DNA of 64,000 nucleotides, taken from a virus. Shown here piece after piece: positions 1-64,000 of the stretch. The stretch's first letter is position 1. Every line of letters begins with the position of its first letter. The notes below the pieces were generated by a model, which saw only the letters and a program-made list of their open reading frames with translations, was not told the DNA's origin and made no database searches. The position numbers and the translations under genes were made by a program. The stretch covers positions 64,001-128,000 of the IMG/VR virus record IMGVR_UViG_3300020421_001669. One strand, 5' to 3'.

Positions 1-1517
1 CTTCTGCTTCTGCTTTATCAGTAGGTTCCACAACAATAACCGCTGCTGGTTCTGGATATTCATCCGCAACAGTAACATTTTCCGACCCAACAGGTGTAAC
101 TCCTGCTAATGGTGGTATTACTGCTACTGGAACAGTGGCTTTATCTGGTAACAATGTTGCATCAATCACAATTACAAATCCAGGCTACGGATATACATCT
201 GCGCCTACATTGACAATTGCTGGTGATGGTTCATCTGCAACTGCTACAGCTGCATTACAAACCGCGTGGACATACAAAGACAATTTTGATTTCACACCTA
301 CTACAACTACATGGGCAAAGAACAATGGTGCTTCACGCGACATGGTTCATGTTATTGTTGTTGATGAAACTGGAGAAATCACTGGAACTGCTGGAACAGT
401 CCTAGAAAAATTCGCTGGACTATCCAAGGCATCTGACGCTAAAGATGACCTAAACCAGACAAACTTTTACAAAAATGTAATCAATGACCGTTCAGAATGG
501 ATATACTGGATGGATCATCCTACAAACGGAAGCAACTGGGGTAACTCATCTGCTGGTGGAACTACTTTTGCTACATTGCTAGGTTCCTCAGATGGTGATG
601 TTTCAACTTCACTTGGAAGTGGTGTTGACGCCTCTCCTGCTACTGCTGACCTACAATCTGGATACGGACTATTCGCAAATGACGAATTAGTAGATGTAAA
701 CCTAATCTTAGGTTCCGCACACGCAACTGCCGTAGGTGATTACATTATCGATAATGTTGCAGAAATTCGTAAAGATGCTATGGTATTTATTTCTCCACAG
801 AGAAGTGCCGTAGTAAACAACGAAGGTTCAGAAACAACATCAATCATTTCAACAACTGACCTTAACGCATATACTCGTTCATCTTATGCAGTATATGATT
901 CTGGTTGGAAATATATGTACGACAAGTACAATGACAGATATGTCTACATTCCTCTGAATGGAGATATTGCTGGTACTTGTGTTGTTACAGACAAAGCTGA
1001 TGACCCTTGGTTCTCGCCAGGCGGACTTAATAGAGGACAGATTAAAAATGCAATCAAACTCGCATGGTCACCTAATAAGTCACAAAGAGATACACTTTAC
1101 ACTAAAGGTGTAAACCCTGTAATCTCAACACCAGGCTCTGGTATTGTATTGTTTGGAGACAAGACAATGCTTGATACACCAAGTGCATTTAACAGAATTA
1201 ATGTTCGTAGGTTGTTTATTGTCCTTGAGAAGGCAATCGCAACCGCTGCTAAATTCCAATTATTCGAGTTCAATGATGCATTTACAAGGGCACAATTTGT
1301 TGCTCTAGTAGAACCTTTCTTGAGAGATGTTCAAGGAAGAAGGGGTATCTTTGATTTCCGCGTAGTATGTGACGAAACAAACAATACTGCTGCTGTGATA
1401 GACGCTAATGAGTTTAGGGCTGACATATTTGTCAAACCTGCTAAGTCTATCAACTTCATAACGCTAACATTTGTTGCGACAAGAAGCGGAATATCTTTTG
1501 AAGAACTTGGCGGTTAA
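1..1517 (+). CDS. 18: Tail sheath protein (5' truncated by window edge)
   Basis: C-terminal sheath motifs PWFSPGGLNRG, FGDKT, FNRINVRRLF, FEFND, CDETNN; the frame is open upstream of 135. Confidence 0.95.
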   Translation, partial: SASALSVGSTTITAAGSGYSSATVTFSDPTGVTPANGGITATGTVALSGNNVASITITNPGYGYTSAPTLTIAGDGSSATATAALQTAWTYKDNFDFTPTTTTWAKNNGASRDMVHVIVVDETGEITGTAGTVLEKFAGLSKASDAKDDLNQTNFYKNVINDRSEWIYWMDHPTNGSNWGNSSAGGTTFATLLGSSDGDVSTSLGSGVDASPATADLQSGYGLFANDELVDVNLILGSAHATAVGDYIIDNVAEIRKDAMVFISPQRSAVVNNEGSETTSIISTTDLNAYTRSSYAVYDSGWKYMYDKYNDRYVYIPLNGDIAGTCVVTDKADDPWFSPGGLNRGQIKNAIKLAWSPNKSQRDTLYTKGVNPVISTPGSGIVLFGDKTMLDTPSAFNRINVRRLFIVLEKAIATAAKFQLFEFNDAFTRAQFVALVEPFLRDVQGRRGIFDFRVVCDETNNTAAVIDANEFRADIFVKPAKSINFITLTFVATRSGISFEELGG

Positions 1518-1553
1518 TAGAGATAAATAAAATAAAGTTAGGAGAAAAAACAG

Positions 1554-2072
1554 ATGAATATTGAAGAGTTTAAGGCCAGACTAGGTGCTGGTGGAGCAAG
1601 ACCTAATCAGTTTAGGGTTAAGCTTGCCTTCCCTTCTTATGTTACTGGTGTTGACCCATCTTACAGTCTGCTCGTAACTGGGGCCGCCCTTCCCGCTTCC
1701 AATGTTAACCCTGCTATCATCCAATATAGAGGTAGGGAAATTAAACTTGCAGGCGAAAGGATATTCGACCCTTGGACTATTACAGTAGTTAACGACTCAG
1801 ATTTTAGTCTACGAGCACCATTTGAAGCTTGGATGAACGGTATGAATGACCGTGAAACCAACGAAGCGATTACTTTGGAACCATCAAGTTACCAAAGTGA
1901 TATCGTTGTGGAACATTTAGATAGGAATGACCGTGTGTTAGAGAATGGAACTTACACACTTAGAAACGCATTTCCTATTCAGATGTCAGAAATTGCATTG
2001 AACTATGCTCAGAATGACATCTTTGAAGAATTTACGGTGACATGGCAATACACACATTATGATGTAGAATAA
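1554..2072 (+). CDS. 19: Tail tube protein
   Basis: GARPNQF, YRGREIKLAGER.FDPWTITV motifs; follows sheath. Confidence 0.95.
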   Translation: MNIEEFKARLGAGGARPNQFRVKLAFPSYVTGVDPSYSLLVTGAALPASNVNPAIIQYRGREIKLAGERIFDPWTITVVNDSDFSLRAPFEAWMNGMNDRETNEAITLEPSSYQSDIVVEHLDRNDRVLENGTYTLRNAFPIQMSEIALNYAQNDIFEEFTVTWQYTHYDVE

Positions 2073-2098
2073 TCTACGAGTTGAAGAAGGTATAAATT

Positions 2099-3616
2099 AT
2101 GGAATTATTTGGATTAGAAATAACTAGATCCAAGTCAAAGACGGAAAAATCATTCGTTCCGCCTCATGACGATGGGTCTTTAGAAAGTATAAGGGCGGGT
2201 GGATACTACGGTACTTACTTTGATATAGAAGGTACTGCTAATAGTGAAACCCAACTTATCAAAAGATATAGAGATATATCAATGATGGGCGATGTTGACG
2301 CAGCCATTGAGGATGTTGTCAACGATGCCATCGCAAACTTAGATGATGAGAAACCAGTTAAGTTAAATCTTGACAAGGTTCAACAATCTGCCACAGTTAA
2401 AAAGGCGATTGTAAATGAGTTTGACGGTGTTCTTAGAATGTTAGATTTTAACACTAGGGCACAAGATTATTTCAGACGGTGGTATATTGATGGAAGGATT
2501 TTCTTTCACAAAGTCATCGATACTGAAAAACCAAAAGAAGGTTTAAAGGATGTTCGGTATGTAGACCCAAGGAAAATCCGAAAGGTCAGAGAAGTTAAGA
2601 AAGAGAAAGATAAAAAATCTCAAGTAACTCTCGTGAAAGATGTACTAGAATATTTTGTGTTTGATGAGAAGGGGATTGCCACCAACTCACAAATGTCGTA
2701 CAGGACAGATGTAGTTAACGACAAGGCAATAAAGGTTAGCAAAGACGCCGTAACATACTGTACATCGGGTCTAGTTGACCAAGATAGGAACATACCACTT
2801 TCCTATCTTCACAAGGCGATACGCCCTGCTAACCAATTGAGAATGATGGAGAACGCAGTGGTGATTTATCGTATCACGCGAGCTCCAGAAAGAAGAATTT
2901 TTTATATAGATGTTGGAAATCTGCCAACAGGAAAGGCAGAACAATATCTAAAAGATGTTATGAGTCGCTACAGAAACAAACTTGTTTATGATAGTGATAC
3001 TGGTGAGATAAGAGATGACAAGAAGTTTATGTCAATGCTTGAAGACTTCTGGTTACCGAGGAAAGAAGGTGGCAGAGGAACAGAGATTCAAACATTGCCA
3101 GGCGGGTCTAACTTGGGTGAGATTGAAGATGTAGTTTACTTCCAAAAGAAACTATATCAGGCACTCAATGTTCCGATTTCTCGTCTGGAACAACAAAGTG
3201 GACTGAATTTTGGTAGGTCTGCTGAGATTACCAGAGATGAACTTAAATTTACAAAGTTCGTTTCTAAGTTGAGAAATAGATTTAGTGGGATATTTGATGA
3301 CCTACTAAAAACTCAACTTGTACTGAAAGGGGTCATTAACGAAGAAGAATGGCCAGAGATTAGAAATGACCTACAGTATATGTACGCTCAAGATGCCTAC
3401 TATACTGAGTCTAAGGAACAAGAAATTCTTAGAAGTAGGTTAGAGATACTAAACGGTGTGGTGCCATTTATAGGTCAATTGTTTAGTAAAGAGTATGTAC
3501 AAAAGAATATTATGCGATTCTCCGATGAGGAGATAAGTATTATAGACGGGCAAATTGCAGCTAGTCAAGAAGGAGGGGAAGAACCTCAAATAACTAATGG
3601 AGAAGATAATGAGTGA
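2099..3616 (+). CDS. 20: Portal protein
   Basis: YRITRAPERRIFYIDVGNLP, EDFWLPRKEGGRGTEI, EITRDELKF motifs. Confidence 0.97.
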   Translation: MELFGLEITRSKSKTEKSFVPPHDDGSLESIRAGGYYGTYFDIEGTANSETQLIKRYRDISMMGDVDAAIEDVVNDAIANLDDEKPVKLNLDKVQQSATVKKAIVNEFDGVLRMLDFNTRAQDYFRRWYIDGRIFFHKVIDTEKPKEGLKDVRYVDPRKIRKVREVKKEKDKKSQVTLVKDVLEYFVFDEKGIATNSQMSYRTDVVNDKAIKVSKDAVTYCTSGLVDQDRNIPLSYLHKAIRPANQLRMMENAVVIYRITRAPERRIFYIDVGNLPTGKAEQYLKDVMSRYRNKLVYDSDTGEIRDDKKFMSMLEDFWLPRKEGGRGTEIQTLPGGSNLGEIEDVVYFQKKLYQALNVPISRLEQQSGLNFGRSAEITRDELKFTKFVSKLRNRFSGIFDDLLKTQLVLKGVINEEEWPEIRNDLQYMYAQDAYYTESKEQEILRSRLEILNGVVPFIGQLFSKEYVQKNIMRFSDEEISIIDGQIAASQEGGEEPQITNGEDNE

Positions 3617-3896
3617 AGTAGAAAATAAAGAAGTGGAAGTGACTGACCAAGTAACACCACAAGATGCTGTCAGAAACATGATGGATAAGTGGGCAGATGG
3701 TGACTACACAGGCGCAAACGATGACTTTGCGAAGGCGATGGGTACAAGGGCGGATGAATTAGTTTCCGCGAGAAAGGAAGAAATTGCAAATGCAATCTTT
3801 AATGACCCAGAACTACAAAAGATGGGACTTGAGGCTGCATCCGAAGAAGAATTAGAACAAACAGAAACCGAAGGGGAAACAAATGAAGACATTTAA
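3609..3896 (+). CDS. Prohead core protein gp67-like
   Basis: Small acidic ORF directly after portal (T4 synteny). Confidence 0.6.
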   Translation: MSEVENKEVEVTDQVTPQDAVRNMMDKWADGDYTGANDDFAKAMGTRADELVSARKEEIANAIFNDPELQKMGLEAASEEELEQTETEGETNEDI

Positions 3897-4236
3897 AGAG
3901 TTACGCGAGGAAGCGCAACCAGTAGAGAAACCTAAGAAGGAAGTCTCTGCTGCCAATGTTCCTGCTGAAAAAGGAACAGAAGGTCATGTCGTTCCCCCAA
4001 AACAGGGAAGTTCGGAAGACCCGAAACTAACACATATGTGTGCTACTAAGGTTGTCCATCCCAAATTCGGTGAGGGTAAACCCATAGTAGGAGAGCATGC
4101 TGAACCAGACTCAGAAGGTAGCATTGCTTGGTATAGGGTTATGTTTGAACACGGTGTGGAAATGTGTGAAACCTATGCTTTGGAAATCTTAGCAGAAGGG
4201 CCACATGGTAACCACTCCAAGAAAAAAGGATATTAG
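3883..4236 (+). CDS. Hypothetical head-associated protein
   Basis: N-terminus MKTFKELREE resembles the T4 capsid-targeting sequence; lies in the head gene cluster. Confidence 0.55.
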   Translation: MKTFKELREEAQPVEKPKKEVSAANVPAEKGTEGHVVPPKQGSSEDPKLTHMCATKVVHPKFGEGKPIVGEHAEPDSEGSIAWYRVMFEHGVEMCETYALEILAEGPHGNHSKKKGY

Positions 4237-4246
4237 GAGAAACTAA

Positions 4247-4636: not shown

Positions 4637-4637
4637 A

Positions 4638-5291: not shown

Positions 5292-5296
5292 AGATT

Positions 5297-5304: not shown

Positions 5305-5341
5305 AATACAGTATAACGCAAATCTCAAAGGAGAAATTAAC

Positions 5342-11041: not shown

Positions 11042-11070
11042 TTGACTTTTGCATAACTTTACTATAGAAT
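11042..11070 (+). promoter_or_regulatory. Sigma70 promoter for gp55
   Basis: TTGACT-N17-TAGAAT. Confidence 0.75.
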
Positions 11071-11080
11071 GGGTAACATT

Positions 11081-11689
11081 ATGACTAAAAAATCAGAAAC
11101 TAATAGACACTATGTCAACAACAAGGAATTTCTTGCCGCTATGACCGAGTATCGGGAGTCCCGATTGGCCGCAGAGGAGAAGGGAGAATCCAAACCGCGT
11201 GTGACAGAGTACATTGGGGAGTGTTTTGTAAAAATCGCAAATCACTTGGCATACAAATCAAATTTTGTAAACTATACATTCAGAGAAGAAATGATTTTGG
11301 ATGGTATAGAAAACTGTATCACATACATTGATAACTTCAATCCAGAAAAGTCAAAGAATCCGTTTGCATATTTTACGCAGATTACATACTATGCTTTTCT
11401 AAGAAGGATACAAAAAGAAAAGAAACAACTTGACACTAAGTACAAGTACATCCAGAACCTTGACATGCAATCTATCATAGATGGTGAAGAGGGACAGGGT
11501 GGTGGTTCTGCTGATTTCATTGAATACATGAAGAAACAAATCGATGAAGCGGAAAAACATAATGCTCAATACGCAGAACAAGATAAGAAGGTTCCTAAAA
11601 GGCGTCCAAAATATCTGGATGACAAAGAAGCAATGAAGATGGCAAAGGAGAAAATACCAGAGTTGAAAGATGCAGAAAAAAGTACTTGA
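11081..11689 (+). CDS. 55: Late sigma factor gp55
   Basis: HYVNNKEFL, NFVNYTFREEMILDGIENC, NPFAYFTQI.YYAFLRRI. Confidence 0.96.
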   Translation: MTKKSETNRHYVNNKEFLAAMTEYRESRLAAEEKGESKPRVTEYIGECFVKIANHLAYKSNFVNYTFREEMILDGIENCITYIDNFNPEKSKNPFAYFTQITYYAFLRRIQKEKKQLDTKYKYIQNLDMQSIIDGEEGQGGGSADFIEYMKKQIDEAEKHNAQYAEQDKKVPKRRPKYLDDKEAMKMAKEKIPELKDAEKST

Positions 11690-11752: not shown

Positions 11753-12292
11753 ATGAACATATTTTATTTACATAAAACCCCTACCGTATCAGTAAAAATG
11801 CATTGCGACAAACATGTCGTGAAGATGGTTATTGAGTACGCTCAGTTATTGTCTACTGCCCATAGGATGTTGGATGGTACACAATGGATTGATGCATCTA
11901 GTGGTAGGAGAATCAAACGGTGGCGACTAGACAATTCCAACATGGATGGTGTCCTATACAAAGCGTCACATATCAATCACCCATCTGCTATATGGGTTCG
12001 TCAAAACAATTCCCAGTATCAATACATGTACAACATGTTTACTAATCTTTGTGATGAGTACACATACAGGTACGGTAAAATACACATGACTGATTCTAAG
12101 TTGCGTGAATTGTTATCCGAGACACCAAAGAACATACCAACTGGTTCTTGGGTTGAACCACCACAATGTATGCCAGATTACTGTAAACAGTCCAACGCTC
12201 TTGATGGGTACAGAACCTATTACAGAGAAGAGAAAAAGGGTTTCGCTAAGTGGACTAACCGCGATGTACCAGAGTTTATGAATGTCGCATGA
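11753..12292 (+). CDS. Pyrimidine-dimer DNA glycosylase/endonuclease V-like protein
   Basis: MNIFYL..HCDKHVVKM..EYAQLLSTAH, HINHPSAIW, PPQCMP, YRTYY family signature. Confidence 0.8.
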   Translation: MNIFYLHKTPTVSVKMHCDKHVVKMVIEYAQLLSTAHRMLDGTQWIDASSGRRIKRWRLDNSNMDGVLYKASHINHPSAIWVRQNNSQYQYMYNMFTNLCDEYTYRYGKIHMTDSKLRELLSETPKNIPTGSWVEPPQCMPDYCKQSNALDGYRTYYREEKKGFAKWTNRDVPEFMNVA

Positions 12293-13401
12293 TATTATCA
12301 AAAGAAGATACGATATATGCTAGTAAGATAGTTGTTGATTACTTCTCAAAGTTTGAGAGGATTGACGATTACTTTCGTGCAAGAAAAATCGAAAGGGTGA
12401 AGGCATTGCCTCCACCCCTTTTTGGTATGAGCGTAGAGGATGACATGTTCCAGAGTTGGGATATGCATCCAGAAGAAATGAATTTTGAAGTTGTTCAAAT
12501 GAACAACGAGGTGTTTGACCAGATGTTAGAGATGACTGCATCTTTTTCACCAGACCAAGCGCCAGGCAAAGAATTAAAACTGATTGTGAAGGAAACGAAT
12601 ACAAACACAGCAGTTGGTTTTATCAAGTTGGGGTCACCGTTAATAAACTCCAAACCAAGGAATGATTTTCTTGGTGGTGTCCCCGACTTGCCTATCTTCA
12701 ACAAGAGGGCAATCATGGGGTTTAATATAGTTCCAGTACAACCATTTGGATTTAATTATCTAGGTGGTAAGTTACTGGCTGCCATTTGTTGTTCACATGA
12801 AGTACGAAGGATGTTGAACAAGAAATATAATACAGAGTTCTGTTTGTTTGAGACTACATCTTTATATGGTAACATAAAGGGTGCTAGTATGTACGATGGT
12901 ATGAAACCCTTCCTAAGATACAAGGGAGATACCATGTCATCATTCTTACTGACTATGGGTGAAGAGATTTATTTTCATCTACGCGATTGGTTTGAAGAAA
13001 AGAATGGTGGTGAAGTTCTTATTCATAAAGGTGCATCTAGTAGAAAACTAAAATACCAAACAAAGATGATTCAAGTTCTCAAGGCAAATCTAAAAGAACA
13101 TGATACAAAAGCATATGAGATGTTTGATAGTGTAATCAAAAAGTCAACCGATGTGACCACACAAAAAAGATTTTATATGTCAGAGTACGGATACAAAAAT
13201 GTACGCGAAGTTCTTTTAGGTAAGACAGAAACACTAGAAAAGGCAGAAAACTTTGACAGGTTTGAACTAGAAAATGTCATTGATTGGTGGAGAAAGAAAG
13301 CCGTCAAAAGATATGACAACTTGGTATCAGATGGAAGAATACGAAAAGATTTGGAAGTCTGGAATTCTGAAACAATTGACAAAATAGATATAATAAGATG
13401 A
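12289..13401 (+). CDS. DUF4338/DruA-like protein
   Basis: VPVQPFGFNYLGGKLLAAICCSHEV...KY...FETTSLYG...SMYD recalls the DruA/DUF4338 core. Confidence 0.65.
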   Translation: MILSKEDTIYASKIVVDYFSKFERIDDYFRARKIERVKALPPPLFGMSVEDDMFQSWDMHPEEMNFEVVQMNNEVFDQMLEMTASFSPDQAPGKELKLIVKETNTNTAVGFIKLGSPLINSKPRNDFLGGVPDLPIFNKRAIMGFNIVPVQPFGFNYLGGKLLAAICCSHEVRRMLNKKYNTEFCLFETTSLYGNIKGASMYDGMKPFLRYKGDTMSSFLLTMGEEIYFHLRDWFEEKNGGEVLIHKGASSRKLKYQTKMIQVLKANLKEHDTKAYEMFDSVIKKSTDVTTQKRFYMSEYGYKNVREVLLGKTETLEKAENFDRFELENVIDWWRKKAVKRYDNLVSDGRIRKDLEVWNSETIDKIDIIR

Positions 13402-13649
13402 ACATAGAAATTTATTCAAAACCAGATTGTCCCTACTGTGACAGGGCAGTGTTTATTGCACAACAAATAATTCAAGAAACAACACACATCAAGTATGAAA
13501 AGAAAATGTTAGATGAAGATTTTACATTTGACGAATTACTTGAGAAATCACCCAACGCGAAAACCTTCCCACAGATATTTGTGGATGGTGAACTCATTGG
13601 TGGATTTAATGAATTTGAAAAAATGGAATGGTGGGCAGACAGACAATGA
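13398..13649 (+). CDS. Glutaredoxin
   Basis: CPYC, TFPQIF, IGGF. Confidence 0.93.
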   Translation: MNIEIYSKPDCPYCDRAVFIAQQIIQETTHIKYEKKMLDEDFTFDELLEKSPNAKTFPQIFVDGELIGGFNEFEKMEWWADRQ

Positions 13650-14053
13650 AAATAGGATTCACTTGCGGTGCATTTGATTTACTACACGCTGGTCATGTTG
13701 TTATGCTTCAAGAAGCAAAAAACAATTGTGACTTTTTAATTGTGGGATTACAAACAGACCCCACACTGGATAGGTCAGACAAAAACAAACCTGTTCAAAG
13801 TATATACGAAAGATATATTCAGTTGCATGGTATAGAAGCTGTAGATGAAGTTATACCATATGACAGAGAAGCATCTTTGATGGATATACTAACCACAAAA
13901 CCAATTGATATAAGATTTGTAGGCGAAGAATATAAAGATAAACAATTTACAGGACAACACTTGGATATAGAAATTTATTATACAAGTAGGACACACACTT
14001 TTTCTTCTACAGATTTGAGGAAACGAGTACAGAATGCTCCTAAACCAAAATGA
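13646..14053 (+). CDS. Cytidylyltransferase (TagD/RfaE-type HxGH)
   Basis: GAFDLLHAGH, C-terminal RT..FSST. Confidence 0.9.
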   Translation: MKIGFTCGAFDLLHAGHVVMLQEAKNNCDFLIVGLQTDPTLDRSDKNKPVQSIYERYIQLHGIEAVDEVIPYDREASLMDILTTKPIDIRFVGEEYKDKQFTGQHLDIEIYYTSRTHTFSSTDLRKRVQNAPKPK

Positions 14054-14366
14054 TATTGGTGGATATGTTGCTAAGGAAGACGATAGGTATATCGTCAAGG
14101 ACAATCCTTTTGGCAACACACTAGTAATTAGTAGTACGCGACTGCATGGTGGACAGGAAACCACTGGACACGAACATGATGGTCAAGAAGAGGTATATTT
14201 TTTTATTGAAGGTGAAGGTATCATAGAATTGGATTCTTTATACACCCATGTTAAGGCTGGTGATATAGTTCCAATCCAAGATGGTGTCTTTCACAAAGTT
14301 TATAATAGTTCAGATGACAATGATTTATATTTCATTTGTGTGTTTGACGGAAAGAGAAGAGTATGA
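14034..14366 (+). CDS. Cupin domain protein
   Basis: GHEHDGQEEVYFFIEGEG ... GDIVPIQDGVFHKV. Confidence 0.88.
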   Translation: MLLNQNDIGGYVAKEDDRYIVKDNPFGNTLVISSTRLHGGQETTGHEHDGQEEVYFFIEGEGIIELDSLYTHVKAGDIVPIQDGVFHKVYNSSDDNDLYFICVFDGKRRV

Positions 14367-15349
14367 AAATAACATGTGCTAGATTGCGGTCTAATGTAAA
14401 GTATGAAGGCCCACTACAAACGGTACTAGATAGTTTCTTAGAGAACTATGTAAAGTGGATGAGGGCAAACCCCCAACACCAGTACGATACATATAACATA
14501 TCCTTTGATGGTACAAGACCTAAAAGAACACCAGAGACAATAGAATGGGCTGACGCGATAGTAATCCCTAGTGATAGTGAGTTTAGATATCATGGTGAGT
14601 TACAAATGAATCCAAAAGACTTGGCGAAGTCACAGTCTCACATGGATAACATTATACCATTCTTCAAGGACAAACATGTCATTGTCATGAGAAGTGATAG
14701 GGGTGATACTGAACAACTATATAGAGAAGAGACACTACAGAATGTTCCAATAAAATCTTACACAGAGATTGATGAGATTGATTTTCCAGGCAACATTCAT
14801 GGAATGAAGTATCACTTTATAAGAAACAAATTTGGTAACCCACTATTCACTACGGCAAAGAGAACTGACTTTGGATATTGGGGGCGCATGAAGACAGGAT
14901 GTGACCGCGATAAAATTATTAGAAAGATTTACCGTGACCCAGATTTAACCACTTGTTTGATTGGTGGATTTCCATCTGGTATTCAAAGACAATCATCGTG
15001 GATAAAGGATTGGAACCAATTGTATCCCATGTTAGAACCATGTAGATGGACACTGTGTTTCAATTGGAAGGATGAGACTGCTACCACCTCTAGGTATGTA
15101 GAGGCACTTGCAATTGGAATGATACCATTTGTCTGGCAACAATACGACAAGAACAATACATACAACATAGACCCTTGGCAAAGAATAGAAGACTTTGATG
15201 ATTTAAAATCTAAGGTCATGGAACTGAGGGATGAAAGTGTACTAGAGAGAAAACTTGAATTGTATAGAATGAACTATAATGAGAAACTATTATCCCTTGG
15301 TGGATACTACGATATTTTTAAAGGAAAAATGAACAAGGTTATTACATGA
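14363..15349 (+). CDS. GT-B glycosyltransferase, T4 beta-glucosyltransferase-like
   Basis: Resembles T4 Bgt as recalled: MKI..., D..Y.G...R motif, TSRYVEALA, C-terminal ..V.EL....L; sits at the T4 a-gt position between genes 55 and 47. Confidence 0.65.
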   Translation: MKITCARLRSNVKYEGPLQTVLDSFLENYVKWMRANPQHQYDTYNISFDGTRPKRTPETIEWADAIVIPSDSEFRYHGELQMNPKDLAKSQSHMDNIIPFFKDKHVIVMRSDRGDTEQLYREETLQNVPIKSYTEIDEIDFPGNIHGMKYHFIRNKFGNPLFTTAKRTDFGYWGRMKTGCDRDKIIRKIYRDPDLTTCLIGGFPSGIQRQSSWIKDWNQLYPMLEPCRWTLCFNWKDETATTSRYVEALAIGMIPFVWQQYDKNNTYNIDPWQRIEDFDDLKSKVMELRDESVLERKLELYRMNYNEKLLSLGGYYDIFKGKMNKVIT

Positions 15350-16398
15350 AGATTGCTCTAGTTAACGATACACACTTTGGTGCGAGGTCAGACAGTTTAC
15401 CGTTTGATGCGTACTTTAAGAAATTCTATGATGAGTTTTTCTTTCCCACTCTCGCGGAAAAAGAAATCAAGACTGTCATGCATTTGGGTGATATCTTTGA
15501 TAGAAGAAAGTATATGAATTATAACACACTTAAAAGTTGTAAGGAGTATTTCTTTGACCAAGCAAAAGACCTAAATATAGATATGCATGTGGTGCCTGGC
15601 AACCACGATACATATTTTAAAAACACTAACAATGTCAACGCGCCAGAACTTCTACTGCAAGAGTATGAAAATGTCAAAGTATATCCCGAAATTACTGAAC
15701 TGGAATTCGATAACAGAAAGATTCTATTCGTTCCTTGGATATGTAGCGATAACTATAGTAGTACTATGGAAATGGTCGGCAGAACAGACGCAAAAGTTTG
15801 TTTCGGACATTTCGAGTTTTCTGGGTTCCAAATGTACGCAGGCATGCCGAATGAGCATGGAATGGATCATACTGCCTTTGAGCACTTTGATTTGGTTTGC
15901 AGTGGTCATTACCACCATCGTAGTAGCAGGGATAATGTGGTCTATCTTGGTAATCCTTATGAAATTACATGGTCGGATTTTAATGATGCACGAGGGTTTA
16001 ATATCTATGACACAGAAACGAATGAATTAGAGTTCATGCAAAATCCTTATAGAATGTTTCATAAGATATTCTATAATGATGTTGACGATAATGTTGAGTA
16101 TGATTTGACAGGATTAGTTGGGGGATGTGTAAAGGTCATCGTAGTAAAGAAAGAAAACTTTACAAAGTTTGATAAACTTATTGACTCTTTGTATAGTTGT
16201 AATCTAGTAGAACTGAAAATTATCGAAGACTTCTCAGAGTTTGAGGATAATGCTGTTGGGGATATAGATTTAAAACTGGATGATACCATTACATTGTTAA
16301 ATGATTATGTTGATAACACTGTCACTGATTTAGATAAGGACAGGTTAAAGTCTCTACTACAAACGCTGTATGTAGAGGCACAACATCACGAGAATTAA
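15346..16398 (+). CDS. 47: Recombination endonuclease subunit (Mre11-like)
   Basis: DTHFG, GDIFDRR, GNHD, GHFE, SGHYH. Confidence 0.95.
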   Translation: MKIALVNDTHFGARSDSLPFDAYFKKFYDEFFFPTLAEKEIKTVMHLGDIFDRRKYMNYNTLKSCKEYFFDQAKDLNIDMHVVPGNHDTYFKNTNNVNAPELLLQEYENVKVYPEITELEFDNRKILFVPWICSDNYSSTMEMVGRTDAKVCFGHFEFSGFQMYAGMPNEHGMDHTAFEHFDLVCSGHYHHRSSRDNVVYLGNPYEITWSDFNDARGFNIYDTETNELEFMQNPYRMFHKIFYNDVDDNVEYDLTGLVGGCVKVIVVKKENFTKFDKLIDSLYSCNLVELKIIEDFSEFEDNAVGDIDLKLDDTITLLNDYVDNTVTDLDKDRLKSLLQTLYVEAQHHEN

Positions 16399-16401
16399 TT
16401 T

Positions 16402-18072
16402 ATGATTTTATTTGAAAAGATAAGATGGAAAAACTTTCTGTCTACAGGGAATAGTTTTACCGAAATAGAGTTTAATCGAAGTCCAAGTACATTGGTAGTT
16501 GGTGAGAATGGAAGTGGTAAATCCACAATGCTTGATGCTGTTTGTTTTGCATTGTTCAATAAACCATTTCGTAAGATTAGTAAGACACAACTAATCAACT
16601 CTATCAATAACAAAAAACTGATAGTTGAGATTGAGTTCAGAGTAGGACAGAAAGAATTCAAAGTCATTCGCGGTGTAAAACCAAGTGTGTTTGAATTGTA
16701 TTGTGACGGACAGATGTTAGACCAAGATGCTGCTGTAAGAGATACACAAAAATATCTTGAAGAAAGTATTCTCAAGATGAACTTTAAATCTTTTACACAG
16801 ATTGTTATACTGGGTAGTGCTTCATTTACACCATTCATGCAGTTGCCTACAGCATCTCGCCGTGAAATTATTGAAGACATCCTAGACATTGAAATATTTA
16901 CAACGATGAATCAAGTCTTGAGAGATAAGATTGCTGTTCTAAGGGATGAGATTAGAGATGTAGAAACAGAAGTAGAGGTAGCAAAGTCGAAGGCCAATGT
17001 TCAAAGAAAATATATTGACCAGTTGGAACGCGACAAAAAAATTAAAGTCGATAAAATTAAGGAGAAAATAGATGAAATCATCGAGGCGTCTACTGAACTT
17101 GAAATCAAACTTTCAGAGGCAACAGCAGAGAAGGAGAGTTATGATGATCCAAAGCAACGCAAACAAAAACTGGATACTCTCAAAGACAAACTCGACTCCA
17201 ATCTCAGAAAGGCAAGAAAAGAACTCGACTTCTACCACAACACAGAAGAGTGTCCAACCTGTAAACAAGGACTAACTCACGATTTCAAAGAAGAAAAACA
17301 AAAAGAAAAGTCTGATAGGATAGGTGAGTTAGAGGAAGGATTAGAAAATATGAATTCCGAATATGATTCTGTTTATGAGGCAATGGAAAAGTATGACTCT
17401 ATATCTACGGTAATACAAGAAACACAAAGTGAAATTATTACACAGGAAAGATATCGAAATAGAATGACGCTGGAATTGAATGAAGCAGAAACTAATGTTG
17501 CAGACATCGATGAAGAAAAAAGTAAACTTAAAGATTTAGCAGTTGACTTGACAACAAAAAATAAATTGAAAACTGATAAGGGTGAGGAACAACATTACAA
17601 TACTGCTGCTACTAGTCTGCTCAAGGATACAGGAATTAAGACTAGAGTTATAAGACAGTATCTACCAATCATCAATCAGTTGGTAAATAAATATTTGGCC
17701 GCGATGGATTTCTTTGTTCACTTTGACTTGGATGAAAAGTTCAATGAGACAATAAAGTCCAGACATAGAGACAAGTTTTCTTACTCTAGTTTTAGTGAGG
17801 GTGAGAAACAAAGAATAGACTTGGCATTACTATTCACATGGCGAACAATTGCTAAGATGAAGAACAGTGCCAGTACCAACCTGTTATTACTTGATGAAGT
17901 ATTTGACAGTTCCTTGGATAACAATGGTGTTGATTATGTAATGAACCTATTGAGTACCATAGGAGAGGAAACCAATGTGTTTGTGATTTCTCACAAAGGT
18001 GACCAGTTGTTTGATAAATTTAGAAATCAGATTAAATTTGAAAAGATTAGAAACTATAGTGTGATGTCATGA
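16402..18072 (+). CDS. 46: Recombination endonuclease ATPase subunit (Rad50-like)
   Basis: GENGSGKS, CPTC zinc hook, FSEGEK, LDEVFD. Confidence 0.96.
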   Translation: MILFEKIRWKNFLSTGNSFTEIEFNRSPSTLVVGENGSGKSTMLDAVCFALFNKPFRKISKTQLINSINNKKLIVEIEFRVGQKEFKVIRGVKPSVFELYCDGQMLDQDAAVRDTQKYLEESILKMNFKSFTQIVILGSASFTPFMQLPTASRREIIEDILDIEIFTTMNQVLRDKIAVLRDEIRDVETEVEVAKSKANVQRKYIDQLERDKKIKVDKIKEKIDEIIEASTELEIKLSEATAEKESYDDPKQRKQKLDTLKDKLDSNLRKARKELDFYHNTEECPTCKQGLTHDFKEEKQKEKSDRIGELEEGLENMNSEYDSVYEAMEKYDSISTVIQETQSEIITQERYRNRMTLELNEAETNVADIDEEKSKLKDLAVDLTTKNKLKTDKGEEQHYNTAATSLLKDTGIKTRVIRQYLPIINQLVNKYLAAMDFFVHFDLDEKFNETIKSRHRDKFSYSSFSEGEKQRIDLALLFTWRTIAKMKNSASTNLLLLDEVFDSSLDNNGVDYVMNLLSTIGEETNVFVISHKGDQLFDKFRNQIKFEKIRNYSVMS

Positions 18073-25610: not shown

Positions 25611-26230
25611 CAGATTTTAATATTGAAGTTGGTCAAAAACTACCAGAAGATATCACTTTCCACATGAGGGTAAGGGATGAAAAGATGGTAGAACAGGGGG
25701 ATGAGAATCCATATCAGTGGCAACTAGTAAACTCAACTGACTTGTTCAAGGACAAGAGGGTTGTATTGTTTGCTTTGCCTGGCGCGTTTACTCCGACTTG
25801 TTCAACCTATCAACTACCAGATTACGACAACAATTATGAGTTGTTCAAAAGGTCTGGTATCGATGAGGTATATTGTCTATCTGTTAATGACAGTTTTGTT
25901 ATGAACAAATGGGGCGATTGGTTGGACATTGATAGTGTAAAACTAATTCCAGATGGAAGTGGTTTCTTTACAGAGGCTATTGGTGCGTTGGTAAAGAAAG
26001 ACAACTTAGGATTCGGGCCAAGGTCTTGGAGATATTCAGTCCTAGTAAATGATGGTGTTGTAGAAAAGGCATTCATCGAAGAGGGATGTGAAGATGATTG
26101 TCCCGCTGACCCATACGAAGTTTCTGACCCATACACAATGATGCAATATATTCAAAACGAAAGTCCTGTAGGACAACAGTATGAGTTGAATCTTGAAGAT
26201 GGATTGGGAACAGAAGAACAGGTTGGATAA
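25607..26230 (+). CDS. Peroxiredoxin (Prx5/PGdx type)
   Basis: LPGAFTPTCS, SVNDSFVM, RSWRYS. Confidence 0.93.
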   Translation: MTDFNIEVGQKLPEDITFHMRVRDEKMVEQGDENPYQWQLVNSTDLFKDKRVVLFALPGAFTPTCSTYQLPDYDNNYELFKRSGIDEVYCLSVNDSFVMNKWGDWLDIDSVKLIPDGSGFFTEAIGALVKKDNLGFGPRSWRYSVLVNDGVVEKAFIEEGCEDDCPADPYEVSDPYTMMQYIQNESPVGQQYELNLEDGLGTEEQVG

Positions 26231-27014
26231 AGTTGATTACGATATAAAACCTTTATCAAAGGAACTCGCAATCGATTTTATTCAGACGCATCATTATTCA
26301 CCAATGATGCCTAAACTGACAAAGCATTATCTAGGGTGCTTTCTCAATGGTGAACTTGTAGGTGTTTTGACTTTGGGCTGGGGTACTCAACCTAGACAAA
26401 CAATCAATAAGATGTTTACTGGTCTTGAGTCAAAACACTATTGGGAAATTGGTAAGATGTGCATGACAGATGACATGCCAACCAATTCAGAATCACAAAT
26501 GATATCCCAAACAGTCAAGTGGATAAAAGAAAATACACCCGATGTATTATTTCTTTACACAATGGCAGATGGTATCATGGGCAAATGTGGATATGTATAT
26601 CAGGCCAGTAATTTTTTATACGGTGGAAAATACTTCACTCAAGTCTACGAGATAAATGGAGAAAAGATTCACCCTAGAACGACAGGAAAACTATGTGAAG
26701 AGAACGCAAGGTTCTCTGGTAGAGATAAAATTTTTTGGTTGACTTCTGACTTTATGAAAGAAAAGGGAATCAAAAAAATTGAAGGGTATATGTTCAGATA
26801 TATCTTTCCACTAAATAAGAAAGCAAAAAGACTATTGAAAAAATCAAATATGGAATGGACTAGAAATTATCCAAAAGACCATGACTTAAAATGGTTTGAT
26901 AAAACTGGTAAACCCAAATTTGAAATTGAACAACCCCACTTTTCATATGATGAAGTATTACATAATTCTAAGAACATCGATGGTGGTGGTGCATCTTTAA
27001 GAGGTATATTATGA
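26193..27014 (+). CDS. Mu Mom-like DNA-modifying acyltransferase
   Basis: HHYS, LVGVLTLG, P.NSESQMIS, AD...G..GYVYQASNF.Y.G; true start probably near 26223. Confidence 0.75.
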   Translation: MKMDWEQKNRLDKVDYDIKPLSKELAIDFIQTHHYSPMMPKLTKHYLGCFLNGELVGVLTLGWGTQPRQTINKMFTGLESKHYWEIGKMCMTDDMPTNSESQMISQTVKWIKENTPDVLFLYTMADGIMGKCGYVYQASNFLYGGKYFTQVYEINGEKIHPRTTGKLCEENARFSGRDKIFWLTSDFMKEKGIKKIEGYMFRYIFPLNKKAKRLLKKSNMEWTRNYPKDHDLKWFDKTGKPKFEIEQPHFSYDEVLHNSKNIDGGGASLRGIL

Positions 27015-27778
27015 GCAAAATTATTTTAGTGTCTGGTGGATTTGACCCACTACATAAAGGACACCTTGAGTTGTTGAAAGAAGCAAAAGCAATGGGTGAC
27101 TATCTATCAGTTGGATTGAATAGTGACGCATGGTTAACTAGAAAAAAAGGTTCGCCTTTCATGACATCATGGGACAGGATGGATATGTTGATGGAGATGG
27201 AATGTGTTGACCATGTAGTTCCCTTCAATGATGATGACGATACCGCGAAAGATTTTATAGACAAAGCAATTGCTAGTTTTGGATTAGAACATAAGTTTGT
27301 ATTTGCTAATGGTGGTGACAGGACAGAAGAAAACATTCCAGAGATGGAACTAAGAGAAAAGTTTTCCCATGCTCATTTAGAGTTTGCATTTAATGTTGGT
27401 GGTGATAAAGAGTATACTAGTAGTAGTGTAAATAAGATAGACAGAGCTTGGGGACAGTACAAAGTTATACACGAAGAACAAACTGCTAAAGTTAAACTGT
27501 TAACTATCGATATTGAAAAGGCAATAAGTTATCAGAGGCATTTTTACAGAGGTGAAATTTGGCATCTTGTTTCTGGACAGGCAATGATTAAAACCAGTAA
27601 AGGTAGTCCAAGTAATTACACATACGATTACTTGACCTCTGGACAACACTTTAGTGTTGTGCCATATGAATGGCATCAAATAAAAAATATAGGGAGAGAA
27701 CCTTTGAGGATTATTGAAATTCAACACGGTTCTTATGTCGAAGAAGATGATATTGAACGCGAGGAGATAATTCATTGA
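27011..27778 (+). CDS. Cytidylyltransferase fused to cupin (PMI type II-like)
   Basis: SGGFDPLHKGH, FANGGDR; C-terminal RAWGQY..ISYQRHFYRGEIW..WHQI..IIEIQHG.Y.EEDDIER. Confidence 0.88.
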   Translation: MSKIILVSGGFDPLHKGHLELLKEAKAMGDYLSVGLNSDAWLTRKKGSPFMTSWDRMDMLMEMECVDHVVPFNDDDDTAKDFIDKAIASFGLEHKFVFANGGDRTEENIPEMELREKFSHAHLEFAFNVGGDKEYTSSSVNKIDRAWGQYKVIHEEQTAKVKLLTIDIEKAISYQRHFYRGEIWHLVSGQAMIKTSKGSPSNYTYDYLTSGQHFSVVPYEWHQIKNIGREPLRIIEIQHGSYVEEDDIEREEIIH

Positions 27779-27948
27779 GAAAGAAGGGTATAAAGGCAAG
27801 ACGAATGGTTGCCCTAGAAAACTTGGAGAAGGCAAAGTTCACTCCAAAACAGGTAAGGTCTGGCAAAAAAATGGTAGACCGTTCTGAGGAAACTTGGAAC
27901 AAGAATAGAGAATACCAGATAGAGGTGCTTAAGAAAAGAGTACAGTAA
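27775..27948 (+). CDS. Small basic protein (57 aa)
   Basis: TTG start with GAGGAG SD; fills the gap exactly. Confidence 0.5.
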   Translation: MRKKGIKARRMVALENLEKAKFTPKQVRSGKKMVDRSEETWNKNREYQIEVLKKRVQ

Positions 27949-27950
27949 TC

Positions 27951-49971: not shown

Positions 49972-49972
49972 T

Positions 49973-60477: not shown

Positions 60478-61087
60478 TATAGAAAAAGAAATACCACTAA
60501 ATAAGAAGATTGCGGTTTTAGTTAGTGGTGGATGGGACAGTGCCATTATGTGGTATCTGGTCAAATCAGTGTGTATGGAACGCAATCAAGAGTGTAATCC
60601 GTTTACAGTACCAAAGATTGATGGTGCGGAACATTACGCTAATATGGTGCTAGAATGGTCTTCTAACCGTCTAGGACACGCCAAGATAAAGACAACCATT
60701 GTAGGGGATGTATCATCCGATAATCCTTCTGATTATGTTACCAGTGGTGGTTGGGATATCTGGAACAGAGGTTTGGGTGAACATTTATTCAGCGCAGTAA
60801 ATGCCTACCCACCAAATCAAAGGTCTATGCTACCAGAGGGTTACCCTTTACCCAATGATAGATTTATTAAGACCGATGAACACAAGCATTTAAGTGTGCC
60901 TTTCGCAGACTTTACAAAAGATAAAATTGTACAGTTAGGATTTGATTTAGGTATAGCAGAAGACATTATGCCTATCACTCATAGTTGTACGGAATTGGAC
61001 AGGGGCCGATGTGGTAACTGCTGGTGGTGTAAAGAAAGAGAGTGGGCTTTTAACGAAATAGGTCAAAAAGATACTGGAGAGAACTAA
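60443..61087 (+). CDS. QueC-like PP-loop ATPase
   Basis: SGGWDS and THSC...CGNCWWCKER; probable GTG start at 60467. Confidence 0.75.
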   Translation: MMVKIVLHVKDDIEKEIPLNKKIAVLVSGGWDSAIMWYLVKSVCMERNQECNPFTVPKIDGAEHYANMVLEWSSNRLGHAKIKTTIVGDVSSDNPSDYVTSGGWDIWNRGLGEHLFSAVNAYPPNQRSMLPEGYPLPNDRFIKTDEHKHLSVPFADFTKDKIVQLGFDLGIAEDIMPITHSCTELDRGRCGNCWWCKEREWAFNEIGQKDTGEN

Positions 61088-62076
61088 TGACACCTAAACA
61101 AGATTTAACAAGTAAAAGAGAATATTTTAAACCCTTCAACTACCCTTGGGCATACGAGGCATGGTTGAAACATGAACAGTCTCATTGGTTACATACCGAA
61201 GTACCGATGGCAGAAGATGTAAAAGATTGGAAGGAACGATTATCACAAGAAGAGAAAGCATTTCTCACTAATATATTTCGATTCTTCACACAGGGTGACA
61301 TAGATGTGGCAGATGGGTATGTGACTAACTATCTGCCATATTTTCCGCAACCAGAAATACGAATGATGTTATCTGGATTTGCCGCTCGAGAAGCATTGCA
61401 TGTTGCCGCTTACTCACATCTAATTGAGACTCTTGGGATGCCTGAAAGTACATACAGTGAGTTCTTGGAGTATCAGGCAATGGCAGATAAACACGAATAC
61501 TTTATGGACTTATCAAAAGCAAATGGAACCGCAGAGAGTGTTGCCACTAATATCGCCGCCTTTAGTGCATTTACTGAGGGTATGCAGTTGTTTAGTTCTT
61601 TCATTATGTTATTGAACTTTCCGCGTCACGGTAAGATGAAAGGTATGGGTCAGATTATTACATGGTCTATTGTAGATGAGACTATGCACGCTGAGTCTAT
61701 GATTAAGTTGTTTAGAACTTACATAGAGGAGAACAGAAGACTATGGAAGGATTCTCTTAAAAGAGAAATATATACCATTGCTGAAAATATGGTAGAGTTA
61801 GAAGAAAAATTTATTGACCTTGCATTTGCTATGGGGCCAATGGAGAATCTAAAACCAGAAGATGTTAAAACATATATTCGATACATTGCTGACAGGAGAT
61901 TGATTAGTTTGGGTATGAGAGGTATATTCAAGGTAAAAAGAAATCCACTATTGTGGGTAGAAGAAATGATTAACGCACCTACACATACAAACTTCTTTGA
62001 AAATAGAGCAACTGATTATGCGAGGGGGGCGCTCCAAGGGAAGTGGGATGATGTCTGGGGGACAGCAGTAGCATAA
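61087..62076 (+). CDS. nrdB: Ribonucleotide reductase class Ia beta
   Basis: FFTQGD, EALHVAAY, EGMQLFSSF, DETMH, NFFE. Confidence 0.96.
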   Translation: MTPKQDLTSKREYFKPFNYPWAYEAWLKHEQSHWLHTEVPMAEDVKDWKERLSQEEKAFLTNIFRFFTQGDIDVADGYVTNYLPYFPQPEIRMMLSGFAAREALHVAAYSHLIETLGMPESTYSEFLEYQAMADKHEYFMDLSKANGTAESVATNIAAFSAFTEGMQLFSSFIMLLNFPRHGKMKGMGQIITWSIVDETMHAESMIKLFRTYIEENRRLWKDSLKREIYTIAENMVELEEKFIDLAFAMGPMENLKPEDVKTYIRYIADRRLISLGMRGIFKVKRNPLLWVEEMINAPTHTNFFENRATDYARGALQGKWDDVWGTAVA

Positions 62077-62077
62077 T

Positions 62078-62260
62078 ATGACTGAACCTTCAAAACATAT
62101 AGAGTGTGTCAAATGTGATGCAGTTTACCGAATAAAACATGATATGTCGGATTCCCATTATCGTATGGAGTATTGTACATTCTGTGGTTCGAGATTAGAA
62201 CTTGAAGAAGAGTTAGAACAAGAGGATTGGGATAAAGAAGAGGTAATTGAGGATTGGTAG
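62078..62260 (+). CDS. Small zinc-ribbon protein
   Basis: CVKC ... CTFCG; acidic tail. Confidence 0.7.
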   Translation: MTEPSKHIECVKCDAVYRIKHDMSDSHYRMEYCTFCGSRLELEEELEQEDWDKEEVIEDW

Positions 62261-62694
62261 TGGATAAGTTTGATAAAGCGCATATGCAAACAGCAAATGT
62301 ATATGCAAAATTATCACCCGCCAAGAGATTAAAGGTTGGGTGTATATTGGTGAAAGAGAATAGAATTGTCTCTATTGGATACAATGGTACGCCATCTGGA
62401 TGGAGTAACGATTGCGAATATCCAAGTAAAAGAGGCGCATTGACAGGCAATGTCATAGAACTAAAAACTAAACCAGAGGTATTACACGCGGAGACAAATG
62501 CAATTGCTAAAGTTGCGAGGTCTACAGAAAGTGCTGAGGGTACTACATTGTACACCACTCACGCACCATGTTTAGATTGTTCTAAGTTGATATATCAGTC
62601 TGGTATTAGTGCGGTTTACTACGAGAAGGAATATAGAACAGAGGAAGGCATTAAGTTTTTAAAGAAATCTGGAGTACCAGTTTTCAAAATGTAG
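62254..62694 (+). CDS. cd: dCMP deaminase
   Basis: GYNG, HAETNAI, PCLDC. Confidence 0.92.
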   Translation: MVVDKFDKAHMQTANVYAKLSPAKRLKVGCILVKENRIVSIGYNGTPSGWSNDCEYPSKRGALTGNVIELKTKPEVLHAETNAIAKVARSTESAEGTTLYTTHAPCLDCSKLIYQSGISAVYYEKEYRTEEGIKFLKKSGVPVFKM

Positions 62695-62702
62695 GAGTAA
62701 AT

Positions 62703-63374
62703 ATGGTTGAATTTTATGGGCATGAGTTGAAACATGATGATAGTTGTTTTACACCAACTACAATAACAAAGTTTACGGCAATCAATGTGCCAGTCGAAGG
62801 TAAAAAGGTTTTAGACCTTGGTTGTGGTATTGGCCCACTTGCTATATACTATGCAAAGAATGGTGCTGAATCTGTGACTGCTGTTGATGTTTATGAGAAA
62901 CATTGTTTTTATACCATGATTAATGCTGCTACGAATAATGTACAAGACAAAGTAAAAGTTATCAAGAGTGATTTGTTTGAAGATGTACACGAAAAATTTG
63001 ATGTTATATCGTGTGATGTGTCTGGTGTAGATAGAAGGGTAGCAGAGATGACAGGGTGGTTCCCCGATGGAGTACCCAAGGCAGATGAGACAGGTGCTGA
63101 TATTATATGTCGTGCAATCAAAGATGCCCCTAATTATCTAAATGAGGGTGGCGATTTCTATTTGTGTACTGCTCAGTTTTCAGACTTACAAAAGATACAA
63201 GTACAGATGTCACAGACTCAAGGGTTGAATCAAGGGGAGAAAGTATTTGAAAAGTCTATACCTTTTTCTAAGAGGTTATTAGAAAATATAGATAACTTAG
63301 ACCCCAAACATTATAACAAAAGGGGTTCAAGATATTTTTGGAATTTTGCTCTATGGAGAATGGGTCTATTATGA
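62703..63374 (+). CDS. Class I SAM-dependent methyltransferase (PrmC/HemK-like)
   Basis: VLDLGCGIG, SDLF, FDVI. Confidence 0.85.
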   Translation: MVEFYGHELKHDDSCFTPTTITKFTAINVPVEGKKVLDLGCGIGPLAIYYAKNGAESVTAVDVYEKHCFYTMINAATNNVQDKVKVIKSDLFEDVHEKFDVISCDVSGVDRRVAEMTGWFPDGVPKADETGADIICRAIKDAPNYLNEGGDFYLCTAQFSDLQKIQVQMSQTQGLNQGEKVFEKSIPFSKRLLENIDNLDPKHYNKRGSRYFWNFALWRMGLL

Positions 63375-63667
63375 AAAAGTTGACTACATTATGGATGATA
63401 TTTTTGTGGTTTCTTTTACTACCTATCATAGCATTCATACCACATTCTAATTGTTGGTACTATTCTGTTAAAAGATGGGTACTAGAAGGATTCAAGGGTA
63501 AAGTAATACCAGTTGAAAGTAGAAGGTGGAGAGGATATCACTGTGTCTATCAAGATGCTAATGGAGAACTATGGGAGTATACATTAAAAAGGATGCCTAG
63601 GTTTATGCCTTGGTGGCAATTAATAGTATACAGGGGTGTTGAAAGACGATACCGTGGAAAAATATAA
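63371..63667 (+). CDS. Hypothetical membrane protein
   Basis: N-terminal TM; ATGA overlap. Confidence 0.6.
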   Translation: MKKLTTLWMIFLWFLLLPIIAFIPHSNCWYYSVKRWVLEGFKGKVIPVESRRWRGYHCVYQDANGELWEYTLKRMPRFMPWWQLIVYRGVERRYRGKI

Positions 63668-63670
63668 AAT

Positions 63671-64000
63671 ATGATTTATGAAGATTTTTTAACTGAAACA
63701 GTGTTTCCTGTAGTCAAAGACAAAAATGTCTTAGAAATAGGTGCATTGAATGATAAAATTACAGAATGTATTAAAAACGCTGGTGCTTATTATGTGGAGA
63801 CAGTAGACCCAGTTGGTTTGGTTAAACCAATTTTCAAGGGTACTGCTAATGATTATTATAAACAATTCAATCCAGATGACGGCAGATATCGTGATACTGA
63901 TGTTGTAGTGGTCATGGGGTTATTATATCACTTACATAGTCCTTGGCATTTACTAGAACTAATCATCAACTATTCACAACCAGATACATTAATAATTGAA
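63671..64000 (+). CDS. Class I SAM-dependent methyltransferase (3' truncated)
   Basis: VLEIGA ... DVVVVMGLLYHLHSP..LL, open to the window end. Confidence 0.75.
   Translation, partial: MIYEDFLTETVFPVVKDKNVLEIGALNDKITECIKNAGAYYVETVDPVGLVKPIFKGTANDYYKQFNPDDGRYRDTDVVVVMGLLYHLHSPWHLLELIINYSQPDTLIIE

Follow-up and report, generated by a model that had tools for sequence, protein, structure and literature searches.

This analysis concerns a 64,000-nucleotide stretch of viral DNA (the window), namely bases 64001-128000 of the 161,406-bp IMG/VR record IMGVR_UViG_3300020421_001669, which is 91% complete and is called G000 where the whole genome is meant. Our finding that every depleted restriction-type word beginning with C persists in G000 solely where G precedes it on one strand or both makes it likely, judging from sequence statistics, that the phage DNA carries a protective mark in the context 5'-GCY-3' (IUPAC code here and below). 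To account for the whole pattern we favour, with some though far from full confidence, a phage-made GCY mark whose writer would be a gene cassette in the slot that a-gt occupies in T4 (12289-15349 in window coordinates, as for all positions below). Expected counts derive from 200 shuffles that leave the encoded protein and the codon usage of every gene unchanged.

The rule is strict at CCWGG and CCGG, which have G on the 5' side or C on the 3' side in 25/25 and 9/9 window copies and in 65/65 and 29/29 copies genome-wide. A first-pass annotation of the window had claimed that every CCAGG is CCAGGC, every CCTGG is GCCTGG and every CCGG is GCCGG or CCGGC, and exact counts agree (15/15, 10/10 and 9/9, respectively), the positions it listed being right within 1 base; across the genome the one-sided form seen with CCAGG and CCTGG in the window gives way to G 5' or C 3' on either side, in a strand-symmetric manner. 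Versions without a protective flank are absent: HCCWGGD occurs 0 times in the window against 34.1 +/- 4.7 expected (genome: 0 against 87), HCCGGD 0 times against 32.0 +/- 5.2 (genome: 0 against 88) and HCCTGG 0 times in the window against 40.2. GGWCC behaves likewise (window: 0 against 38.1 +/- 4.6; genome: 0 against 102), so that HCCTGG, HCCGGD and GGWCC all lie far from near-expected frequencies, and the annotation's statement that Gly-Pro is never encoded through GGWCC stands, with 0 GGACC and 0 GGTCC in the window. Flanked forms, on the other hand, are tolerated or enriched genome-wide (observed vs expected: GCCWGG, 98 vs 42; GCCGG, 36 vs 48; GGCC, 157 vs 153) and, being at or above expectation, they argue against a general decay of these words.

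Codon choice tells the same story and confirms what the annotation had suspected, namely that sites forced by Pro-Gly and Gly-Pro are steered into a GCC context. Pro-Gly pairs use GGC in 67/74 cases even though GGC makes up 10.8% of Gly codons, and the remaining 7 have a G before them; for Gly-Pro, the Gly codon is GGC or GGG in 70/70 pairs even though GGA and GGT together account for 80% of Gly codons. Sequence logos reveal no conservation around the surviving sites apart from the single flanking base.

Beyond these words, the same 5' G, counted on at least one strand, is present genome-wide in all copies of CCATGG (10/10; unflanked 0 vs 18 expected), CCTAGG (5/5), CCTNAGG (3/3), CYCGRG (7/7; unflanked 0 vs 18), CTGCAG (5/5; unflanked 0 vs 20), CTTAAG (6/6; unflanked 0 vs 22), CTCGAG (2/2; unflanked 0 vs 7) and CCGCGG (1/1). 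In the null the flanked fraction of such C-initial words is 0.3-0.5, and G-flanked copies of the purged words are close to expectation. Since CTGCAG, CTTAAG and CTCGAG survive when G-flanked, GCT rescues as well as GCC does. GCG does not, for CGWCG has 0 copies where about 25 G-flanked ones were expected, and TGCGCA, GTGCAC, TCGCGA and ACGCGT are all at 0 despite their internal GC, as is unflanked CTGCAG. With rescue by GCC and GCT and none by GCA or GCG, the protected context is 5'-GCY-3'. This led to a prediction set beforehand, that GCGC should occur only as GCGCY, and it held: YGCGCR numbers 0 against 24.4 expected and a 3' Y is found on one strand at 117/117 GCGC sites (GCGCC, 89 vs 62 expected; GCGCT, 68 vs 70).

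Asymmetric words, in which the rule can operate on one strand alone, follow it there. Of HCCTGA, 2 copies remain against 186 expected while GCCTGA stays at 32 against 33, leaving 32/34 CCTGA sites G-flanked, and CCCGT is G-flanked in 16/16 cases (GCCCGT). Together with CGTCTC (1 vs 29 expected) and GACGAC (0 vs 32), which are also purged in G000, these two probably represent type IIS/III-like host specificities. An unbiased scan of 6-mers points the same way, with GCY/RGC in 0/73 purged 6-mers vs 19% of comparable words (P ~2e-7). What all rescued sites have in common is the C:G pair at the C of GCY, a context that covers about 6.8% of cytosines and recurs once per 39 bp. The first-pass proposal that the phage marks GCC/GGC and tolerates sites lying under the mark is thus upheld in that a context-specific mark is the best-supported reading, and needs widening as to its motif, which is GCY and not GCC alone. 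A GCC-only motif is ruled out by the rescue of CTGCAG, CTTAAG, CTCGAG and GCGCT in GCT contexts, and a general GpC mark like that of M.CviPI by the failure of GCA and GCG contexts to rescue.

The loss of uncovered sites reflects very strong counter-selection with multiple specificities. Short palindromes fall far below the codon-preserving null, as in restriction-site avoidance, and whole-genome counts are 0 for ACGT (289 expected), CGWCG (84), GGWCC (102, as above), TCTAGA (51), TTCGAA (45), GGTACC (26) and GACNNNGTC (16), likewise 0 for GTCGAC and others, and 34 for GATC (471 expected). Complete loss of many 4- to 6-bp palindromes is also seen in classical palindrome avoidance by phages; unlike there, avoidance in G000 is conditional on the flanking trinucleotide context. 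We know of no earlier account in which such conditional avoidance serves to read out the modification motif of the phage itself.

G000 is a T4-like myovirus with recognised genes for portal gp20, sheath, UvsW, gp47/46, gp45, gp44/62, RegA, gp43 polymerase and NrdA. At the protein level it shares only about 33% identity with marine cyanomyoviruses and with Pelagibacter phage HTVC008M, megablast against isolated phages gave no match, and its close relatives come from marine metagenomes; the lineage belongs to myoviruses that are abundant in the ocean and related to HTVC008M. A cyanophage-type host was rejected because psbA was found neither in G000 nor in 15 relatives.

Among the relatives, the rule persists in G002, G017, G022, G018, G025 and G021, whose lists of purged sites differ. 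G017, complete at 165.6 kb and lacking the Mom-family gene described below, has flanked CCWGG in 107/107, CCGG in 78/78 and CCATGG in 14/14 cases, YGCGCR at 0 of 96 GCGC and no GGWCC (0), and it retains ACGT, GATC and TCTAGA; G022, also without Mom, has flanked CCWGG in 86/86 and CTGCAG in 21/21 cases and 0 YGCGCR. ACGT and GATC are purged in G000, G002 and G021 and not in G017 or G022, and TCTAGA is purged in G000 and not in its close relative G002. Such differences imply different host restriction-modification (R-M) repertoires, and a rule that stays constant while the purged list varies argues for a phage-borne mark that meets different hosts' repertoires. The rule is absent from G005 (complete), G007, G014 and G023, all of which lack the glycosyltransferase encoded at 14363-15349 and purge GGCC instead (observed/expected, 0.1-0.25). 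By tblastn with all 195 predicted G000 proteins, only the 14363-15349 gene was present in every rule-positive genome (6/6) and in no rule-negative one (0/3), and at IMG/VR loci centred on its DruA-like neighbour the glycosyltransferase is adjacent in 47 rule-positive and 0/22 rule-negative loci (Fisher's P = 3e-8, for loci that are not phylogenetically independent). Among the genes of G000 it is the one that correlates best with the GCY rule.

This glycosyltransferase (14363..15349, 328 aa, GT-B type) lies downstream of a gp55 late sigma factor homologue (11069..11689; 39% identity to T4 gp55, E 1e-25) and directly upstream of gp47 and gp46 (15346..18072; Mre11/Rad50-like, with Pfam Metallophos and SMC_N/AAA_23 matches), the two edges of the a-gt slot in the T4 order 55 - a-gt - 47 - 46; all these genes and those of the two cassettes described here are on the + strand. 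It has no Pfam match. A profile of 46 homologues found T4 BGT (1bgt) as its sole meaningful sequence match in the PDB (E 7e-4), hhalign against T4 b-gt gave E 1.7e-4 over 159 columns, and an AlphaFold2 model built from the 46-sequence alignment (predicted local distance difference test, pLDDT, 93.7; predicted template modelling score 0.91) had T4 AGT or BGT for all of its 12 best matches in a fold search of 350,542 PDB chains; the single-sequence model, at pLDDT 31, was set aside in favour of the alignment-based one. By profile, predicted fold and gene position the protein thus resembles the T4 DNA glucosyltransferases.

Upstream of it, the cassette encodes a DruA-like protein (12289..13401, 370 aa; DUF4338, PF14236, Pfam E 1e-7; phrog_19197, E 8e-151), a glutaredoxin (13398..13649, 83 aa; PF00462, E 7e-12), a small nucleotidyltransferase (13628..14053, 141 aa; PF01467, E 4e-15; phrog_7878, E 3e-37) and a cupin (14034..14366, 110 aa; PF07883, E 3e-11). 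The nucleotidyltransferase is best matched by RfaE domain II, i.e. heptose-1-phosphate adenylyltransferase (TIGR02199, E 3e-21, below the equivalog cut-off), its gene neighbours that of the DruA-like protein at 53 loci, with no rule-negative locus among them, and its homology suggests a probable maker of the sugar donor, next to which the cupin is a possible sugar isomerase or epimerase. The DruA-like gene occurs in 6/6 rule-positive genomes and also in two rule-negative ones (G014, G023), and the corresponding atlas clusters carry PF14236. A homologue in a Synechococcus phage is annotated 'methylcarbamoylase mom'; alignment of the DruA-like profile with a Mom profile by hhalign was not significant (probability 0.2%), and a PDB profile search with the family returned nothing useful. 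We regard the DruA-like protein as a candidate partner or writer of the mark.

From these data we would picture a post-replicative modification placed on the C of 5'-GCY-3', or on the G paired with that C, which on one strand within a recognition sequence would be enough to block cleavage, so that pressure from many restriction specificities (at least 20 words are purged) would have removed every site out of the mark's reach. ACGT, CGWCG, GGWCC, GATC, TCTAGA, TTCGAA, GGTACC and GTCGAC would be unreachable and hence purged, whereas sites whose outer C follows G and precedes Y, or which have GCY inside, would be kept or steered towards GCCWGG, GCCGG, GCCATGG, GCTGCAG, GCTTAAG, GCGCY, GGCC and GGSCC. 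The writer would most likely be phage-encoded and consist of the DruA-like, RfaE-II-like, cupin and GT-B proteins of the 12289-15349 cassette, which together may place a sugar, possibly heptose, on the base; that this cassette makes the GCY mark we think reasonably probable in view of gene content and position. We infer that the T4-like DNA glycosyltransferase probably attaches a sugar and that this sugar is the mark. A more specific route, in which a sequence-specific DruA-like writer creates the acceptor in place of a C5-cytosine methyltransferase (C5-MT) and TET, and the a-gt-slot glycosyltransferase then adds a heptose-type sugar, is a tentative proposal that we would rather doubt than defend.

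Were the mark made by the host, through an orphan or R-M-linked GCY cytosine methyltransferase, its link to the glycosyltransferase would be a phylogenetic coincidence. No recognisable DNA methyltransferase or TET was found in the phage, and the rule-positive genomes are related and may share hosts, both of which would suit such an enzyme; to our minds it is nevertheless unlikely, as the rule stays constant though the purged site lists of the relatives differ sharply, and as relatives without the glycosyltransferase, which are also non-cyanobacterial marine T4-like phages (no psbA), cannot tolerate GGCC. Fast lytic replication of the T4 type, moreover, usually outruns host methylases. We find it improbable, too, that there is no modification at all and that nucleases sparing G-flanked sites, many 6- to 7-bp specificities or a mutational or repair bias produced the pattern. 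Flanking bases do affect some restriction enzymes, and flank rules that we cannot explain do exist in other relatives (TGGCC in G005, TCCGGA in G014). A single one-base rule is common, however, to at least 12 unrelated recognition sequences, asymmetric ones included, and obeys a trinucleotide logic (GCC and GCT yes, GCA and GCG no) on either strand; that independent enzymes should share the same quirk is very unlikely, and coding constraints are ruled out by the codon-shuffled null.

The window also contains a Mom-like cassette, whose 273-aa Mom-family protein (26193..27014; PF25680, E 4e-59; 35% identity to Mu Mom) is a strong family member and the sole textbook DNA-modification gene in the genome, and CAGGC fits the Mu consensus S-A-S-N-Y. 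The first-pass annotation named no enzyme for its proposed mark, and this gene would be the obvious choice in the window. An acyl modification of the Mu-Mom type with a new context might therefore be envisaged as the mark, a scenario to which we assign a very small chance: rescue needs no adenine at a fixed position according to the logos, CCGG and GCGC contain no A at all, and the rule holds in G017 and G022, which lack the cassette, as well as in G001, which lacks it at the syntenic site. Because Mom-less relatives obey the rule, Mom is excluded as its determinant, and by homology the protein is a second, separate candidate DNA modifier that is dispensable for the GCY rule. Nor does a class I S-adenosylmethionine (SAM) methyltransferase at 62703..63374 (+ strand; MTS/PrmA/HemK-like, no NPPY motif) track the rule, being present only in G000 and G017. 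7-Deazaguanine at GGC (of the CAjan type) was ruled out since there is no TGT/DpdA gene.

Several observations weigh against a phage-made GCY mark written from the a-gt slot. The canonical writers were not detected: C5-MT (PF00145) has no match in G000 or in 15 relatives including the complete G017, and in G000 there was no match for TET/JBP (PF12851, at E <= 1), ThyA-type hydroxymethylase (PF00303) or DpdA/TGT (PF01702) and no detectable match for N4/N6-methyltransferases and Dam, which leaves the acceptor for a glycosyltransferase acting on 5-hydroxymethylcytosine (5hmC) unexplained. Consistent with this, the PC-Q/ENV motif pair of C5-MTs is in none of the open reading frames, and the one generic 2-oxoglutarate-Fe(II) oxygenase (PF13759) lies outside the window. 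AGCT, AAGCTT and TAGCTA contain GCT and yet are 2- to 3-fold depleted; more broadly, GCT/AGC is under-represented (2342 vs 3203 expected), and AGCT reaches 0.46 of the expected count, even though GCT seems to be a protected context. The phyletic correlation is just that, resting on few related lineages that are not phylogenetically independent. HTVC008M, the one isolate that has a homologue of the glycosyltransferase (39% identical), still purges GGCC and follows the rule only partially, and in L163, an unrelated phage, a 68% homologue is present and the rule is not. L163 weakens the case for the glycosyltransferase alone as sufficient, G014 and G023 that for the DruA-like gene alone as determinant, so neither on its own looks sufficient. 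Finally, SAR11 genomes, those of the presumed hosts, rarely encode R-M systems according to a study of pelagimyophages (PMC7029224).

As to the latter point, the same survey takes glycosyltransferase and rfaE genes of this kind as modifiers of host lipopolysaccharide (PMC7029224). HTVC008M (NC_020484; loci L338-L341), a cultured SAR11 phage, has completely purged TCTAGA, TTCGAA, GTCGAC, GTGCAC and CYCGRG, with YGCGCR at 0 of 59 GCGC and CCGG flanked in 41/51 cases. The strong site purging in G000 and HTVC008M challenges both the lipopolysaccharide-modifier reading and the view that R-M is rare (PMC7029224).

The motif itself has a precedent. Burke et al. (2021, PMC8256090) showed that GpC[C/T], until then not among the specificities in REBASE, is the usual target of phage C5-MTs that are coupled to TETs, that the TETs likewise favour C or T at +1, and that the 5hmC is subsequently decorated by glycosyltransferases; on contig 53, a cytidylyltransferase and a T4-bGT-like glycosyltransferase put heptose on 5hmC (Pyle et al. 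2023, bioRxiv 10.1101/2023.12.21.572611). What G000 would have in common with this C5-MT/5mYOX(TET)/glycosyltransferase system is the GCY motif, deduced here from the footprint only, and the pairing of a T4-bGT-like GT-B glycosyltransferase with a small nucleotidyltransferase. In contrast to it, no C5-MT or TET/JBP was detected here and a DruA-like gene adjoins the glycosyltransferase instead. So with the same motif and gene pair and without methyltransferase and TET, G000 would appear to work like the system of Burke and Pyle rather than to be a member of it. The T4 pathway of hydroxymethylcytosine (hmC) glucosylation (gp42, a-gt, b-gt) is similar in having a glycosyltransferase in the 55-47 interval, with AGT/BGT as the best folds; it differs in its ThyA-family dCMP hydroxymethylase, none of which was found in G000, and in that our footprint shows context-limited protection and not global replacement of C, which is unlikely because a fully hmC-glucosylated genome has no reason to purge sites. 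Mu Mom resembles the G000 case in its partial, context-dependent protection from many restriction enzymes, and a true Mom-family gene is present here, as is the DruA-like protein with its Synechococcus-phage homologue annotated Mom-like; the G000 footprint, however, needs C/G and not A, and Mom is dispensable for it. M.CviPI, a GpC methyltransferase of chlorella viruses, also has a very short GpC-containing recognition sequence, whereas in G000 GCA and GCG give no rescue and no C5-MT gene was found.

The context common to surviving copies of otherwise purged sites may thus serve as a computational readout of a phage's modification motif, and the one recovered here, GCY, is that found experimentally for different phage enzymes. 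Pyle et al. doubted that GpC-limited marks protect against restriction (bioRxiv 10.1101/2023.12.21.572611); G000 suggests that a sparse GpC-limited mark can do so when the sites it leaves uncovered are purged. Since C5-MT and TET were not detected, an undescribed pathway is likely, with the DruA-like protein as prime suspect. If that protein is indeed the writer, the DruA family, including DruA of Druantia, would gain its first biochemical role, as a DNA base-modifying enzyme.

DruA-like genes seem to be generally paired with a glycosyltransferase. In other lineages (e.g. L259, L272, L226:7500-8846), the DruA-like gene occupies the gp44-gp62 interval, and after it comes a gene whose 448-aa product weakly matches Glycos_transf_1. 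In some relatives (L221:4988-6430; L226) a gene for a GmrSD_N + HNH nuclease is inserted beside and downstream of the DruA-like gene. GmrSD-type enzymes attack sugar-modified DNA, and the insertion may be phage-against-phage weaponry. In L163 (9977-11915), an otherwise unrelated contig, the 68% glycosyltransferase homologue stands directly beside a Mom-family gene, which suggests horizontal transfer and functional pairing of the glycosyltransferase with Mom/DruA-type enzymes.

The Mom cassette of G000 as a whole (26193-29681) is an insertion between prx and gp44. Downstream of the Mom-family gene it encodes a fusion of an RfaE-II-like nucleotidyltransferase with a cupin of the mannose-6-phosphate-isomerase C-terminal type (27011..27778) and a fusion of a radical SAM domain with a short-chain dehydrogenase (27951..29681), the latter present only in some close relatives (L009, L010, L015, L016). 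No adenine-context footprint was found for this cassette. The 17 GATC sites that survive in the window (17146-56266) are mostly GGATCA or TGATCA, 13/17 of them having GATCA/TGATC. Flank rules of another kind occur in two relatives without the glycosyltransferase: TGGCC makes up 17/18 surviving GGCC in G005, while in G014 CCGG is TCCGGA in 6/7 cases and GGCC has a 5' T or a 3' A in 28/31. These rules (loci L114-L122 and L306-L313) may have been left by a context-specific mark of another kind.

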